64,000 nt of DNA from Parcubacteria group bacterium Gr01-1014_20 (GCA_007376265.1 VMFW01000001.1:2455-66454), one strand, 5' to 3'. Positions 4,672-61,149 are shown, numbered from the stretch's first letter. Notes: a model not told the origin generated them from the letters alone. Made by a program: numbers and translations.

Positions 4672-4742
4672 CTGGGCATGGGTGAGTGTTTTTTTAAATA
4701 GAGAAACTTTGGGTTTCTCGATTTTGCTTTATAATAATTGGG

Positions 4743-5465
4743 ATGGCCTTAAACAAGCAATTATCAAATACGCAGGACCTGGTGGCGATTGAGGAGATTC
4801 ATGACAACACGGTTATCTTAAAAAGCGGGGCAATGCGACAAGTGCTTATGGTGGGCGGCATGAACACGGCTCTTAAATCGGAGGAGGAGCTGAATTTGAT
4901 TACGACGTCTTATCAGAATTTTCTGAACAGCCTCGATTTCTCGATTCAGATCATCGTTCACTCACGAAAGGTGAATATAGAAAAGTATCTTTCGGGCCTA
5001 GAGGAAAGGCGGCGGTTGGAACAGTCGGCTATTCTGCAAAGTCAGATTTCAGAGTACAAGGAGTTTATCGCTGGCTTTGTTCGAGAAAACGACATTATGG
5101 AGAAGACCTTTTTAGTGGTGGTGCCGTTTAGCCCGAGTGGCCTCGCCGGAGTAACGTCGGCTTCGGGAGTTGCGAAACTGTTTCCTTTCTTCGGTGCGAA
5201 AGGCGATGCGAAAGAGGTGAAGGTCAAAGAGGGGATGGAAAAGGAGGCGAGTTTCAAAGAGAGTTTGGGTCAGTTAAATCAAAGAGTTAACCAGATTGTC
5301 GAGGGCTTGCGAGCGATTGATCTAGACGCGGCAGTTCTAGGCGACGAGGAGCTGATTGAGCTTTTTTATAACTTCTACAATCCTGAAACAGTTGAGCGGG
5401 GAAACCTAAATGTCCCAGTCGAAAAAAACGAAGGCGTTGAAGGTGATGAGGTGGAGAACAAATAA
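4743..5465 (+). CDS. VirB4-family N-terminal domain encoded as a separate ORF
   Basis: Motif ...DNTVILKSGAMRQVLMVGGMNTALKSEEE... resembles the VirB4/TrbE N-terminus. TAA stop lies 2 nt before the ATG of the ATPase ORF, which is in a different frame. Confidence 0.6.
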   Translation: MALNKQLSNTQDLVAIEEIHDNTVILKSGAMRQVLMVGGMNTALKSEEELNLITTSYQNFLNSLDFSIQIIVHSRKVNIEKYLSGLEERRRLEQSAILQSQISEYKEFIAGFVRENDIMEKTFLVVVPFSPSGLAGVTSASGVAKLFPFFGAKGDAKEVKVKEGMEKEASFKESLGQLNQRVNQIVEGLRAIDLDAAVLGDEELIELFYNFYNPETVERGNLNVPVEKNEGVEGDEVENK

Positions 5466-31268: not shown

Positions 31269-31790
31269 TTATTTTTTGGCAATCTGGAGATTTAGTCCGT
31301 AACCGCCGAATTTGGGGGCGCCCAGAACTTTGTGTTCAATAGTGATCATCTTCAGGAATTCGGCGAGTTTTTGATTGGCCCACTCTCGGTTGTATTTTTC
31401 ACGACCCCGAAGGCGCAGGGCAATCTCGATGGGGTGGCCCTCGTTCATAAACTTTTCGAGCTGGTGGACTTTGATCAAGAGGTCGTTTTTTTGAGCTCGC
31501 GCGCTGATTTGAATTTGTTTTATTTCGGCCGTTTTTTGGGCAATGCGCTCTTTCTTCTCGGTTTTTTCCTTTTGATAGCGGTATTTGTCGTAACTCATCA
31601 CTTTTACGACCGGCGGAGTAGCAGTCGCAACCACCTCGATCAGGTCTAGGCCTTTTTGGTCGGCGATTTTTAGGGCACTCCCTAGCTTCATGACGCCTAG
31701 GGCCTCACCTTTTTCGTCTATAAGCCTTACCTCGGAGGCGGTAATTTCGTGGTTAAGGCGGGGTTTTTGAATTCTTGGGTTGATTCTCAC
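31269..31790 (-). CDS. infC: Translation initiation factor IF-3
   Basis: ASEVRLIDEKGEALGVMKL...LDLIEV motif; GTG start. Confidence 0.9.
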   Translation of the reverse strand: MRINPRIQKPRLNHEITASEVRLIDEKGEALGVMKLGSALKIADQKGLDLIEVVATATPPVVKVMSYDKYRYQKEKTEKKERIAQKTAEIKQIQISARAQKNDLLIKVHQLEKFMNEGHPIEIALRLRGREKYNREWANQKLAEFLKMITIEHKVLGAPKFGGYGLNLQIAKK

Positions 31791-31849
31791 TATATGGGTC
31801 TTTGGGGGTATTTTAAAGTATTAATGGCGACTAGTAAATATTGAAGGCA

Positions 31850-32096
31850 AAAAAATAATACCCCAGCCCTTATTGAAGAGCCGGGGTATTTTAAGCTACT
31901 CGCCATAAAACGGCTTGATTCCATGCCGGTTTTGGCGGCGAACAGGGAAACGACGGCCCCGGTGCTTGCCTTCCCGCCTGACCCTTTTTGGATTGGGGGT
32001 TAGAGGGTTGCGGAACAGATCTCGGGCTTCGGCAAAGCTCTTCACGAGCCACCTCCTACTGGTGAGGGTTTGGGGCCTTAAAACTTGGTGAGTACT
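31850..32096 (-). ncRNA. ffs: Candidate SRP RNA (4.5S/scRNA-like); boundaries approximate
   Basis: Minus-strand promoter TTGCCA-N17-TAAAAT at 32104-32132. Minus-strand terminator (7-bp stem plus U run) at about 31847-31893. Internal GUCAGGCGGGAAGGCAAGCACC resembles the SRP helix-8 consensus CAGG..GGAAGG.AGCAGCC. Confidence 0.45.
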
Positions 32097-32421
32097 AAAG
32101 ATTATTTTATTAGAAAGAATTTGTTTTGGCAACAGGAGCCAAGAGCGTAAAAGAAAAGGACCTCTAGGGGAGGTCCTTAATACTTATATAGTTCAGGATG
32201 ACATGTCATCCCAATGAGCGTGGTCTGGAGTAATTTTTTAAGGATCTGATTTAATCTTAGAGGAATGCGGCAAGTCGTCAAATGCCGGATTGGGGACAAC
32301 TTTTCGCTCACTTGGGCTAAAGGTTGCCTGCCTGCGAGAGCTTCCCGGAAAACAAATGCTCGCTTTGAGATAAAAAAATGAGCCGGGTCAACGTGAAGTT
32401 GTTCCGGCCCATAGGTTTTTT

Positions 32422-33078
32422 CTATCCTTCCTTATTGAGGAATGCTTGGACGACCTCAGCTGGGGTTCGCTTATCGGTTCCGGCGATCTTGGCGATGGTG
32501 GTCAAGGCGCTTAAGTAGCGACCTGCCAGCTTATTCTGTGCCGGAGTTGCCTGACCAGTAGACTCATCCCTGCAAAAGTCGTAGTGTTTCTTCGCCCACG
32601 CATTGTAGTAGGCGACTGACTGAATGTCGTCCAGGATGTCCCACCAGTCCCAGTCCGATGGGTAGAGTTCGCGGAGGCCAAGTTCCTCAACCCATTTCTC
32701 TACTATTGGTTGATCTGCCTCCGGATAGGTGTACTGGTGTGGAGCAACCGTTGCTTTGAGAAAAAGCGAAAAGTCGTAAAGCTGGCATGCCTCCCCATCT
32801 GTCAGCGACGCACCCGTCTTCAATTTGGCTAAGAGAACCACGCAATCATGAATGGTCATCTTCCGGAGGTCGTAGACATATTCCGCTTGAGCTCCTTCTT
32901 TAGCCCAGAGATCCACCTCTTCCGGATCCCCTCCAAAGTCAGCGATGTTCCTTTTTATATGCTCTACGAACAAAGCGACTGAATCGAAGGCAGGGGTTAC
33001 GAATTGATCCACTGTGCTGTTAAAGGCGACATATAGTGTGCCTTTGTCCGTCAACAACCTTCTAACGCTTGTGCCCAA
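32422..33078 (-). CDS. Hypothetical protein (about 50% GC, slightly above local background)
   Basis: 218 aa ORF with a terminator-like hairpin downstream; no recognisable motifs. Confidence 0.45.
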   Translation of the reverse strand: MGTSVRRLLTDKGTLYVAFNSTVDQFVTPAFDSVALFVEHIKRNIADFGGDPEEVDLWAKEGAQAEYVYDLRKMTIHDCVVLLAKLKTGASLTDGEACQLYDFSLFLKATVAPHQYTYPEADQPIVEKWVEELGLRELYPSDWDWWDILDDIQSVAYYNAWAKKHYDFCRDESTGQATPAQNKLAGRYLSALTTIAKIAGTDKRTPAEVVQAFLNKEG

Positions 33079-33379
33079 TGTTATCGCCGTCCTTTCTTCG
33101 GAAAACGAAATTTTAAAGGCGTGAATTTACTGGGAGTGATAGTATCACCTTGCTCTACTGTTTGTCAATGGGGGGTTAGTTGTTGGAGGTTCAGATCGGA
33201 GCATAATAACCCAGAGCACAAGACCCCGCCCTTGGGTGGATTTTTGTTAGCGGTGTTTTGGTGGAGATAGGGGAATTTCACTGCCTACCTTGAAGGAAGC
33301 TCCGACGTGATAGTCGGAGCACTCGTTTTGCAAACAAAAAAATACCGTGATCAATCGGTATTTTTTGTGCAAAACTGAG

Positions 33380-33695
33380 TGGAGATGGGCGGAATTGAAC
33401 CGCCGTGTAAGGGTATTGCCGCTAAATCATCTACGAGTGTATTTCCGCCGAAGCGAAAAAGGTTTGATTCATTGTCTCGTTCCTAAACCAGAATCATCGT
33501 TTAGAAACCAGTCTTCGGTATAACACCGCGATTAGCCAGAGAAGACTACCCAGCTAGGCGATGCCGAGTTTAAGCGTAAGCTAGGCTCGGAGCTGCAACT
33601 TTGTTGTTGGCAGTTATAAATTTTTTTGTCGGATTAACGAGACGACGCTCGACTCGCAATTCAGAACTTTACCCCTATCGAAGCCATTCATCCCC
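33380..33695 (-). ncRNA. ssrA: tmRNA (SsrA)
   Basis: 5' end GGGGATGAATGGCTTCGATAGGGG; 3' tRNA-like end GGCGGTTCAATTCCGCC-CATCTCC-A pairs with the 5' end including a G3-U wobble. Internal tag ORF GCC AAC AAC AAA GTT GCA GCT CCG AGC CTA GCT TAC GCT TAA gives ANNKVAAPSLAYA. Terminator hairpin downstream at about 33330-33365. Confidence 0.8.
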
Positions 33696-33703
33696 GAGCT
33701 CGC

Positions 33704-33732
33704 AGTTTACCACTTAATTTTATAAAAGTCAA
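33704..33732 (-). promoter_or_regulatory. Sigma-70-type promoter for ssrA
   Basis: Minus strand reads TTGACT-N17-TAAACT, with 8 nt to the tmRNA 5' G. Confidence 0.55.
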
Positions 33733-33744
33733 GATTAAAAAATC

Positions 33745-33778
33745 CCCAGAGCACGCGTTTGTGCTCTGGGGAATGGTT
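33745..33778 (-). terminator. Terminator for the GC-rich small gene
   Basis: ccccagagcac gcgttt gtgctctgggg 11-bp stem with a U run on the minus strand. Confidence 0.6.
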
Positions 33779-33799
33779 TGACTAGTCGTCTGTGGCAGA

Positions 33800-34078
33800 C
33801 TAGTTGGGCATCGGACGGACCGAGACGCCGGAGTTGGAACACTCGAGACGAATCTTATCGTAGAGTGTCGCCGGGTCGGTGTTGACCAGGATCAGGTTCC
33901 TGGCGGTCGGAACATCGATGAGCGGGGAGTGGCCGACCTTCAGGCCCTCCGGGAAGACCCGATACGCCGTGCCGTTCGTCTGGTCGACCCAGACGCCGGG
34001 CTGGTTGATATCGGAGAACTTCGCGGCGGTGATGCTGAAGGCCTGCGCGTTGCCCGGGGGCGTGGTGGTCTCGTTCAT
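33800..34078 (-). CDS. Small hypothetical protein (92 aa) encoded in a sharply GC-rich islet
   Basis: Perfect SD AAGGAG 7 nt upstream; own promoter TTGACA-N16-TACTAT (34167-34194); own terminator. About 60% GC against about 46% in the flanks. Confidence 0.6.
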   Translation of the reverse strand: MNETTTPPGNAQAFSITAAKFSDINQPGVWVDQTNGTAYRVFPEGLKVGHSPLIDVPTARNLILVNTDPATLYDKIRLECSNSGVSVRPMPN

Positions 34079-34233
34079 TGTGACACTCTCCTTAAGTTAC
34101 GAACGCCTCCCTTGGGGAGGCTGTTTTTGCTACCCATCGGCACCTTACCAATGGCAAGCGGGGTTCATAGTAGCAAGCCCGTTTATTTTGTCAACTCGTG
34201 GGTAAGATAGGCGTAGAATTGTCGCTTTTTTGA

Positions 34234-35424
34234 TCAAATGTCCGAAACTCGTTCGCCGAAGCGGATTTTGTATTTTTTTGAAGTGTAAATTTTGGTGATG
34301 AGGTAGTTAACCAGCCAGGTGGCTGCAACGATGATTAGAAAATAAAAGGCGCCGAGGCTCGTGATTTTTGGGAGTTCATTTCTTGAGAGGTAGCCGATGA
34401 TGCCAGAGATAACCCCGAGGCTTGTGATGAGCTGCAAGGATTGGATGCCGCGAGCAGTACTTTGGTTTTTGATTTCCACGATGTTCTGGATAGCAGAGGC
34501 GAGATAGTCCCCCGTCATCTTCCAAAGTTCTTTAATATAGTCGAGGGTGTCGGAGAGAACTTCAAATTTGAATTGGAAGAGTTTGGTTAGGTGTTCTTCA
34601 ATTTCCATGCCTTTGGCGATCGAGGAGCGAGTGCGGACATAGGTTCCCATTTGGTTGATGCGATTGCCAATGAGACTGATGGTTTTTTGATAGCTGTCGA
34701 GCTTGCCTCTTAGAATTTCAACTTCGTCCCCTTTCACGCTTTTGCGTTCTTTGATGTTTGATATTTCTTCCCAAAGTGTGCGGTGGATGTTTAAGTACTT
34801 TTCGAGCTGGTCTTTGAACTCTCTGAAAAAAACCTGCATCTCTACGATGTCGGCCACTTTGGTTTCCAAACCGGGTTTCGAGACCACGAAGATGTACGAG
34901 GGGGTTTTGTAGACGACAATGTTTTCGGACGAAATTTTTTGATAGACGGCGCCAAAGGTTTTTGAGTCGATGGAGTATTGGTCTGGGTTTTTGCTGGTTG
35001 AATTGATGACGGTTGGGTGAACGGTCTTGATGTTGGCCAGAATCTTGGGAGTGGGGGCGCCGAGCGAAAAGATGTAAGAGACGGCTGGGCTAAAGTGGTT
35101 TTCGAAGTAATCTTTAAGAAATTCCTGGCCCTGCTTAAGGTTCTTAGAGCTGGTTTCAAGGACGTAGAGGCCGTCTTCGTAGTAGCGGATTTCGATGCCA
35201 TCTTTGGTCAAGGCTTTCAAGAATTCGAGGTAACCGGCTTCTCTTGTCACCGAGGTTAGATTTAGGCCCTGCCGATACTTCTCAAGTGTTTCTTTGGAAA
35301 GATCGAGGTGAGATTTGCCGCTTTCGAAAAGGTTGTAGATTTCACTTAGATGGAGGGTGGTTCGTTGATACCAGCCCCCTAGGGTAATTTTAAAATTTTG
35401 ATTGCTGGCTTCATTTTTGCGCAT
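34234..35424 (-). CDS. Hypothetical protein with two C-terminal TM helices (CorA-like topology but no GMN motif)
   Basis: 396 aa with a large soluble N-domain. Confidence 0.5.
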   Translation of the reverse strand: MRKNEASNQNFKITLGGWYQRTTLHLSEIYNLFESGKSHLDLSKETLEKYRQGLNLTSVTREAGYLEFLKALTKDGIEIRYYEDGLYVLETSSKNLKQGQEFLKDYFENHFSPAVSYIFSLGAPTPKILANIKTVHPTVINSTSKNPDQYSIDSKTFGAVYQKISSENIVVYKTPSYIFVVSKPGLETKVADIVEMQVFFREFKDQLEKYLNIHRTLWEEISNIKERKSVKGDEVEILRGKLDSYQKTISLIGNRINQMGTYVRTRSSIAKGMEIEEHLTKLFQFKFEVLSDTLDYIKELWKMTGDYLASAIQNIVEIKNQSTARGIQSLQLITSLGVISGIIGYLSRNELPKITSLGAFYFLIIVAATWLVNYLITKIYTSKKYKIRFGERVSDI

Positions 35425-61072: not shown

Positions 61073-61144
61073 CGGCCCGTAGCTCAGTGGCAGAGCAAGC
61101 GTCTTATAAGCGCTGGGTCGCAGGTTCGATCCCTGCCGGGCCGA
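61073..61144 (+). tRNA. tRNA-Ile(UAU), putative
   Basis: Hand fold: acceptor cggcccg/cgggccg, D-loop agtggcaga, anticodon loop ctTATaa, T-loop ttcgatc, discriminator A. Confidence 0.7.
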
Positions 61145-61149
61145 CAGAT

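Follow-up and report, generated by a model that had tools for sequence, protein, structure and literature searches.

The window analysed here is a 64-kb stretch of the metagenome-assembled genome (MAG) 'Parcubacteria group bacterium Gr01-1014_20', which contains, upstream of the transfer-messenger RNA (tmRNA) gene ssrA, a GC-rich cassette encoding a single protein of 92 amino acids (aa). The cassette constitutes a self-contained minus-strand unit, composed of a promoter, a leader of ~83 nt, an AAGGAG Shine-Dalgarno (SD) sequence, the 92-codon gene and a strong terminator abutting the ssrA promoter (Table 1). It is monocistronic, with one open reading frame (ORF) between its own promoter and terminator, and the T-run of this terminator runs straight into the ssrA promoter. 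An earlier note on this DNA had described the promoter, a 7-bp hairpin, the SD sequence and the terminator, all of which were recovered at the same positions (with the terminator stem measured at 12 bp). The GGAG core of the SD sequence is kept in 11 of 11 leaders, and the terminator stem is maintained in two sister loci through a compensatory change from C-G to U-A (L015) and a wobble pair (L001). The cassette is probably strongly expressed. Two opposite-strand ORFs (33879-34205 and 33929-34210) were judged to be by-products of the GC-rich frame.

Table 1. Coordinates of the cassette and of the adjoining features in the window. GC3, GC content at third codon positions; dN/dS, ratio of non-synonymous to synonymous divergence.
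Feature	Coordinates	Strand	Basis
92-aa protein gene (GC 0.634, GC3 0.892; member of an uncurated family)	33800..34078	-	ORF, composition, dN/dS, profile search
Sigma-70-type promoter TTGACA-N16-TACTAT with TG-extended -10	34167..34194	-	consensus scan
Conserved structured 5' leader RNA	34079..34161	-	covariance model R1 match
Leader hairpin P0/P1	34129..34159	-	unfitted alignment and RNAalifold
Leader hairpin P2, GCCUCCC CAA GGGAGGC	34105..34121	-	folding energy and covariation
Shine-Dalgarno AAGGAG, 9 nt 5' of the ATG at 34078	34088..34093	-	sequence reading
Intrinsic terminator, stem 33772-33743 with 8 G-C pairs, then TTTTTT	33733..33772	-	consensus scan
ssrA promoter TTGACT-17-TAAACT (context only, outside the cassette)	33704..33732	-	consensus scan; kept in L001 and L015
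tmRNA gene, tag ANNKVAAPSLAYA	33377..33695	-	ARAGORN; Rfam RF00023, 120 bits
396-aa lineage-specific gene with hydrophobic C-terminus, between cassette promoter and GDPD	34234..35424	-	context
218-aa ORF in lineage-specific segment 3' of ssrA	32422..33078	-	context

The compositional break at this locus is real and confined to the 92-aa gene. In a sliding-window analysis, 300-nt windows at 33750-34199 reach a GC content of 0.60-0.617 compared with 0.44-0.50 in the flanks, which bears out the GC-rich islet of the earlier note; only 0.04% of 279-nt windows across the 64 kb are as GC-rich as the gene, and the single richest begins at 33787. The strong G/C bias at third positions claimed for the gene was likewise recovered, with GC contents of 0.548, 0.462 and 0.892 at the first, second and third codon positions, respectively. 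The 58 other ORFs of at least 100 aa in the window show a GC3 of 0.522 ± 0.046 (maximum 0.629), which places the 92-aa gene at a z-score of 6.7. Its third positions comprise 55% C, 34% G, 10% T and 1% A. In contrast, the 218-aa ORF, which had also been regarded as compositionally atypical, has an unexceptional GC3 of 0.58 (z ~1).

The 92-aa protein gave no usable match in searches of Pfam, NCBIfam, PADLOC, PHROGs and PDB sequences, the best match in a curated library being DUF6440 (E value 0.15; 12 bits, cutoff 26.5), and literature searches found nothing relevant. The view that the protein has no recognisable family is thus correct for curated libraries, but an uncurated family of 231 clusters exists. 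A word-indexed search of 5.8 billion proteins returned five relatives only, an exhaustive HMMER profile scan yielded 30 cluster representatives at E<=1e-3, and a 34-member profile retrieved the 231 clusters, whose members are ~87-101 aa long and are called 'hypothetical protein' in every source giving a name. The window protein matches the family profile significantly and over nearly its full length. Conserved family motifs include PG-[AV]-[YW]-V, Y-R, G-x-S-P and D-P, with G28, S51 and P52 invariant, and named hosts belong to Acidobacteriota (Terriglobia, Acidoferrales), Nitrospirota, Zixibacteria and MAGs labelled Ignavibacteria. An AlphaFold (AF2) model from a 34-sequence alignment has a predicted local distance difference test score of 78 and consists of four strands and two helices, and a Foldseek search of PDB with this model returned nothing below E=1; the protein is probably a small cytoplasmic alpha/beta protein. 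The family resembles DUF-type small proteins in its size (~90-100 aa), conserved motifs, 'hypothetical protein' annotation and monocistronic organisation, and differs from them in its absence from Pfam and NCBIfam and in the lack of any PDB sequence or fold match.

Two sets of profile matches were rejected. Those to a 'Cake' designer propeller involve a repeated 17-residue beta-hairpin, with no stretch passing alone, and the short sub-threshold Pfam matches to unrelated families (TraO, P7_N_core, DUF2477, YaaA-type, PG_binding_4) in the giant proteins P0017 and P0024 were taken as chance or repetitive. A metagenome scan with a peptide pattern recovered no further copies, and a scan with a leader pattern gave five matches, none with a family ORF downstream. 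One Ignavibacteria-type MAG (L003) carries the gene in tandem copies (551-826 and 1149-1424) that are 73% identical, each with its own leader.

The ORF is intact in all 11 copies of the cassette, at 89-101 aa, and the motifs PG..V, YR and G-x-SP are kept. As dN/dS among homologue pairs is 0.07-0.47 and differences are concentrated at third positions, the ORF is translated and under selection, and the earlier note was right to treat it as a genuine gene. The possibility that a GC-rich structured or dual-function RNA is the functional product and the ORF incidental is scarcely credible: although conservation in lineages of the candidate phyla radiation (CPR) is much higher for the leader than for the protein and the coding sequence folds slightly better than shuffled controls (z -2.5), the clear codon periodicity of GC (0.55/0.46/0.89), the intact ORF and its motifs, and dN/dS values that stay far under 1 where saturation is less advanced all point to a protein product.

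The cassette was found in six related Parcubacteria-type lineages, which share the promoter block, the leader and the strong terminator. In L001 (P0002, 89% protein identity) and in the Hainich groundwater assemblies L015/L016 (P0008, 59% identity), the gene is followed by ssrA in tandem as in the window; GDPD, 85% identical, lies directly upstream of the cassette in L001, and the GDPD of L015/L016 is 83% identical. In L030-32 (P0018) the order is smpB, the gene and then the convergent 3' end of ssrA at the contig edge, with SmpB at 62% identity. In L027 (P0009) the gene is divergent from MamF (70% identity), matching the arrangement of the gene and GDPD-HIT-MamF in the window, and in L029 (P0010) it lies on a short contig with no marker of relatedness. 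No empty site was found among these lineages (window, L001, L015/L016, L027, L029, L030-32). The earlier note had held that presence with the same composition in all relatives would mark the islet as ancestral, and this is the distribution recovered: every relative found contains the cassette.

A recent arrival as a single-gene islet from a high-GC donor at a tmRNA integration hotspot, with a composition not yet ameliorated, is therefore largely refuted, and we consider it very improbable. The GC3 z-score of 6.7, the otherwise GC-richer phyla in which the family occurs, and the DNA on either side of the cassette and ssrA, which varies between lineages, would agree with it. However, the same neighbourhood and the same GC3 excess recur in all six related lineages, between which neutral sites are near or at saturation. 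Integrases target the 3' end of ssrA; the cassette is located 5' of this gene and precedes its promoter. Scans with Pfam, NCBIfam and PHROG found no integrase domain in the cassette or the neighbouring ORFs, a search tolerating up to 3 mismatches found the 25-nt ssrA 3' end at a single place in the window, and the gene has no flanking repeats, apart from a weak 18-nt copy of the ssrA 3' end at 33261-33278 (78% identity). The hotspot argument thus does not hold here. Furthermore, the promoter is common to the six CPR-type copies and different in copies from hosts of the Fibrobacteres-Chlorobi-Bacteroidetes (FCB) type, and the GC3 of the CPR copies exceeds that of most known homologues. With islands and prophages that target ssrA the cassette shares its position next to this gene, a composition unlike that of the host and variable DNA around ssrA, but it differs from them in lying upstream of the ssrA promoter, in lacking an integrase or an attachment-site duplication, in consisting of a single gene and in being present in all relatives found.

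The position beside ssrA and smpB might also suggest an accessory of trans-translation, in particular as the gene adjoins ssrA in two arrangements, tandem in the clade of the window and convergent in L030, where it is located directly downstream of smpB. We regard such a role as very unlikely. The DNA available for L027 and L029 shows no ssrA near the gene, and scans of the FCB-type loci L003, L005 and L006 and of the Acidobacteria-type loci revealed neither ssrA nor smpB. Moreover, the gene is served by its own promoter and terminator, and the adjacency is explained by conserved synteny in small genomes.

The GC3 excess is a persistent property of the gene in the CPR-type lineages. In all six, with a locus GC content of 44-50%, the gene has a GC3 of 0.75-0.89, which is 0.29 to 0.38 above the host; five lineages lie at 0.83-0.89 and the sixth, in the most AT-rich host, at 0.75. 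In FCB-type hosts the gene has a GC3 of 0.67-0.83, exceeding that of the host by 0.04 to 0.14, and in Acidobacteria-type hosts a GC3 of 0.64-0.68, with a difference of about 0. Synonymous divergence (dS) of GDPD, HIT, SmpB and MamF among the window, L001 and L015 is 0.58-0.96, and in comparisons of the window with L027 or L030 synonymous sites have reached saturation. By a simple two-state relaxation to host equilibrium, which is our own semi-quantitative estimate and not a fitted model, even a start with all third positions G or C would fall to a GC3 of ~0.7 or lower over such divergence. Moreover, the CPR copies (0.75-0.89) are richer in GC3 than most homologues of the GC-richer hosts (0.64-0.83), so the signature of a donor alone cannot explain the bias. 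From an excess that persists through saturated neutral divergence we infer that a gene-specific force must operate, which would keep GC3 ~0.3-0.38 above the host and might consist in selection on the mRNA for stability or expression, or in GC-biased gene conversion.

A rival account of the excess is that translational codon selection is extreme because the gene is very highly expressed. This account would fit the near-consensus extended -10 promoter, the perfect SD sequence and the strong terminator, the preference for C-ending codons in two-fold boxes (AAC 8/8, TTC 3/3) and for ATC (4/5), and the reduced synonymous divergence between the window and L001 (0.25 compared with ~0.8). Contrastingly, rplT, rpmI and infC in the window have an ordinary GC3 of 0.43-0.56, and expression-linked codon bias thus does not explain the excess. 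In addition, the Lys, Glu and Gln codons of the gene are G-ending in 9 of 9 cases, against a genome in which AAA is the preferred Lys codon (62%) and GAA/GAG and CAA/CAG are used evenly, which looks like general G/C enrichment and not like tRNA matching, and the low divergence between the window and L001 is also explained by allele exchange. We consider this explanation unlikely. The folding of the coding-sequence RNA is only modest compared with shuffled sequences.

The 5' leader of the cassette is conserved. Homology between the window and the sister loci begins exactly at the -35 box, and the window, L001 and L015 hardly differ from this point through codon 11; within this clade the leader is 92-95% identical, compared with ~50% at synonymous sites of the flanking genes. 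The six Parcubacteria-type lineages share the -35 box and the promoter block CTTGACAAAAT-N-GGCTTGCTAtTAT, and the regions upstream of FCB-type homologues align to the same leader as in the window. The first element, P0/P1, is composed of a 3-bp outer helix, an internal loop, and an 8-bp helix closed by a loop with the sequence ANGGN in the majority of copies. With the end of the -10 box at 34167 and P0 beginning at 34159, P0/P1 falls at the predicted start of the transcript. On a MAFFT alignment not fitted to any model (A6), 98.2% of the cells of P1 are paired and four of eight pairs are compensatory, compared with 16-60% paired cells in slid controls, and RNAalifold recovered the P1 helix independently. 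The second hairpin, P2, has a folding energy of -13.8 kcal/mol in the window (z -4.7). A hairpin is found at its relative position in 11 of 11 leaders with differing sequences, including GCCUCCC/GGGAGGC, UUGCCGCC/GGUGGCAA, GUCUCC/GGAGAC and GGCUC/GAGCC among others, and five of its seven pairs are altered on both sides in the model alignment.

A covariance model combining P0, P1 and P2 (R1) scores 46-83 bits for the 11 leaders and matches the window at 34076-34161 with 82 bits. R1 gave no match in three distant family loci tested; beyond the 11 leaders it matched only two loci (E=0.04 and 0.9), both among the five fetched by our leader-pattern scan of metagenomes. In the model alignment, which was fitted to R1 and hence inflates the pairing figures, 84.5% of the cells of 18 pairs are paired compared with 33-60% in slid controls, 12 of the 18 pairs are changed on both sides compared with 4-8, and none of 500 shuffles reaches the observed covariation score. 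Neither the leader of the window nor those of the homologous loci scanned match any of the 4227 Rfam families at E<=1. On the plus strand, P2 and the adjoining A-rich linker (34105-34131), the latter specific to CPR copies, resemble an intrinsic terminator (GCCTCCCTTGGGGAGGC TGTTTTTG); this likeness is probably incidental, because no plus-strand ORF judged to be a gene is located within more than 2 kb upstream.

The SD sequence is open in the minimum free energy fold. Read from the sequence, the 5' arm of P2, which contains an anti-SD-like CCUCC, could form ~4 bp with the SD sequence compared with 7 bp inside P2. As P2 is far more stable than this arm-SD pairing, the SD sequence is open and a hairpin enclosing it (P3) shows no covariation, the leader most likely acts post-transcriptionally, as a stabiliser and/or a protein-binding element, rather than as a demonstrated switch. 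Long-lived mRNAs such as those with the E. coli ompA and B. subtilis aprE leaders carry stabilising stem-loops at their 5' termini. The cassette resembles these in having a hairpin within a few nt of its predicted 5' end, a second hairpin before an accessible SD sequence, and a strong promoter and terminator; it differs in that its leader has no sequence relationship to them, that its mRNA start is a prediction, and that its conserved loop (mostly ANGGN) and internal loop suggest specific recognition beyond protection. Like the 'Cis-reg; leader' motifs of Rfam and orphan riboswitch candidates, the leader is a covarying 5' untranslated structure of one gene family across phyla, but it matches no Rfam family, and no alternative expression-platform pairing was found in it. 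Sites of CsrA/RsmA contain GGA in hairpin loops, with one site overlapping the SD sequence. The P1 loop has GG in most copies and a weak hairpin can present the GGA of the SD sequence in its loop; unlike CsrA/RsmA sites, however, the P1 loop reads ANGG[U/G/C/A] and not ANGGA, the GG is missing in L030, and the hairpin at the SD sequence lacks covariation.

The locus is a recombination mosaic, as indicated by a drop of synonymous divergence in the gene and by the distribution of informative sites. Between the window and L001, dS is 0.25 in the gene compared with 0.79-0.88 in the flanks. Informative sites were counted along 830 bp for the three possible groupings of the window, L001 and L015 (given here in the order window+L001, window+L015, L001+L015). 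The core of the coding sequence contains 66, 10 and 7 such sites, the 5' third of the tmRNA gene 3, 15 and 0, its middle 3, 0 and 22, and its 3' third 1, 17 and 0, so that the best-supported grouping switches two times within the tmRNA gene (15, 22 and 17 sites). Judged from these patterns, the coding core has been exchanged among lineages between near-identical flanks, one being the leader and the other comprising the terminator and the ssrA promoter. The tmRNA of L001 has a 30-nt insertion in its 5' third, and the tmRNA tag reads ...APSLAYA in the window and ...APAFAYA in the sisters.

Sequence comparison further indicates that the protein evolves fast in CPR-type lineages and slowly in FCB-type ones. 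The window protein is 45% identical to that of L027, 34% to L029 and 31% to L030, whereas its identity to the slow-evolving FCB-type proteins is 54-61%, in a star-like pattern, and CPR-type proteins share 31-59% identity where SmpB, MamF and GDPD share 62-85%. Deep CPR pairs give dN/dS near 0.5-1, values that are unreliable through saturation, and FCB-type homologues 0.07-0.17. Together with a divergent coding core amid near-identical flanks and incongruent ancestry along the locus, the low identity and the high dN/dS of deep pairs might suggest a molecule of conflict or communication (a toxin, immunity, anti-defence or host-interaction protein) under diversifying selection, the alleles of which are swapped between strains. 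A toxin or immunity role, which the earlier note had entertained, finds no support: the unit is monocistronic with no partner gene, its neighbours differ between lineages, the two co-transcribed genes of a type II toxin-antitoxin or toxin-immunity pair are not present, and PADLOC and PHROG gave no match. Moreover, inspection of the sequence by eye, with no predictor run, revealed neither an evident signal peptide nor a membrane segment, the FCB-type homologues evolve slowly, and the dN/dS of the deep pairs is subject to the saturation mentioned above. We consider a function of this kind quite unlikely.

With regard to its origin, the cassette is likely foreign in the ultimate sense, because the family otherwise occurs in GC-richer diderm phyla and the closest relatives, with 54-66% identity, lie in Zixibacteria/Ignavibacteria-type MAGs. 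The earlier proposal of horizontal acquisition from a high-GC donor can thus be retained for the ultimate origin of the cassette but not for a recent, un-ameliorated arrival. As the leader is common only to CPR-type and FCB-type copies, leader and gene crossed phyla as a unit, and transfer into the Parcubacteria ancestor is the likelier direction, since the wider family resides in GC-richer diderm phyla and the distribution in the CPR is narrow (six lineages in the databases searched). CPR copies have their own sigma-70-type promoter and FCB-type copies a different upstream box, which by eye is GGAAC-like. No homologue was found in phage records, plasmids or viral contigs. A distant family member from Acidoferrales (L010, gene at 1758) is preceded at ~1640-1660 by a perfect sigma-54 consensus, TGGCAC-CTCCT-TTGC, with a sigma-54 activator fragment and a gene for an RRM RNA-binding protein just upstream; a similar sigma-54 site was not seen in the other loci inspected. 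By eye, this site and the GGAAC-like box had suggested a possible promoter of sigma-54 or ECF type common to the family.

Taken together, we favour, as the more probable account, an old, self-contained cassette with actively maintained GC-richness, a structured leader and allele swapping. According to this account, leader and gene would have moved together, long ago, between an FCB-type bacterium and an ancestor of the Parcubacteria clade, after which the unit would have been kept in a neighbourhood of smpB, MamF, the gene and ssrA, and its coding core would have been swapped between related lineages through homologous recombination. G/C-ending codons would be upheld by a gene-specific force and would not represent a fading donor signature, and the 5' hairpin and P2 may confer stability on the mRNA and/or provide a binding site for a regulator, with the SD sequence remaining accessible. 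More tentatively, the leader could be a regulator-sensing RNA element with a protein or small-molecule input, common to Parcubacteria and the FCB group and moved across phyla with the gene, and the G/C-ending codons of Parcubacteria could at the same time be actively selected, for example for an unusually stable and abundant mRNA of a fast-evolving, strain-swapped protein; this combination is possible but doubtful.

Several points weigh against the favoured account. The relatives amount to the six lineages yielded by the databases, the DNA available for L027 and L029 contains no ssrA, which leaves the ancestral position uncertain, and the neighbourhood in L020, a GDPD relative at greater distance, differs and is uninformative. 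The cassette could in principle also be younger and have been distributed among lineages by recombination, and the amelioration estimate is of the simple kind described above. For the leader, only 11 sequences from ~8 independent lineages were available, and the statistics for P0 and P2 come from the fitted alignment. The SD-enclosing hairpin P3 is 84% paired, but was rejected because none of its pairs shows a compensatory change and shuffled sequences do equally well, and no alternative switch pairing was found in the leader. The 5' end of the transcript is predicted from the consensus promoter only, in a group whose promoters are unmapped, and no clue to the function of the 92-aa protein was found.

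The segments flanking the cassette and ssrA are variable. The spot between the cassette promoter and GDPD, which in the window is occupied by the 396-aa gene, is empty in L001; at the same spot, L015/L016 (L015 2350-5881) contain a 43-aa 5' fragment of GDPD and an insertion of NUDIX-GNAT, MBOAT and two small genes. Neither the 396-aa gene nor the 218-aa ORF has a family match in Pfam, NCBIfam, PADLOC or PHROG. The segment with the 218-aa ORF (32310-33377), on the classical variable side of ssrA at its 3' end, lacks an integrase and has no counterpart in L015, where the corresponding position is occupied by an unrelated ~700 nt with a 69-aa ORF. Upstream of infC, ~520 nt of apparently non-coding minus-strand DNA (31790-32310) are ~93% identical to L015, compared with a dS of 0.6-0.96 in neighbouring genes. 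This region includes a possible 49-aa, very basic ORF (31896-32045) with a GTG start behind AGGAGG, which differs from L015 by ~12 synonymous and 6 non-synonymous changes as counted by eye on the alignment. Upstream of this ORF, a promoter-like site precedes a terminator hairpin (GGACCTCCCCTAGAGGTCC and a T-run), an arrangement that could represent a small RNA; Rfam gave only a sub-threshold match to NsiR1 over 31790-32310. Furthermore, the window encodes a tRNA-Ile with the anticodon UAU (61073-61145), an uncommon bacterial way of reading AUA, and the Ignavibacteria-type L003 contains a thiamine pyrophosphate riboswitch (4699-4799, 63 bits) upstream of a gene for a TonB-dependent receptor.

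The cassette is a clean counter-example to the practice of inferring recent transfer from a compositional island, as a GC3 excess of ~0.35 has outlasted the saturation of neutral sites. It adds a candidate structured leader outside Rfam and a small-protein family outside Pfam, linked to each other across phyla, and it shows fine-scale recombination, including inside ssrA, among uncultivated Parcubacteria.

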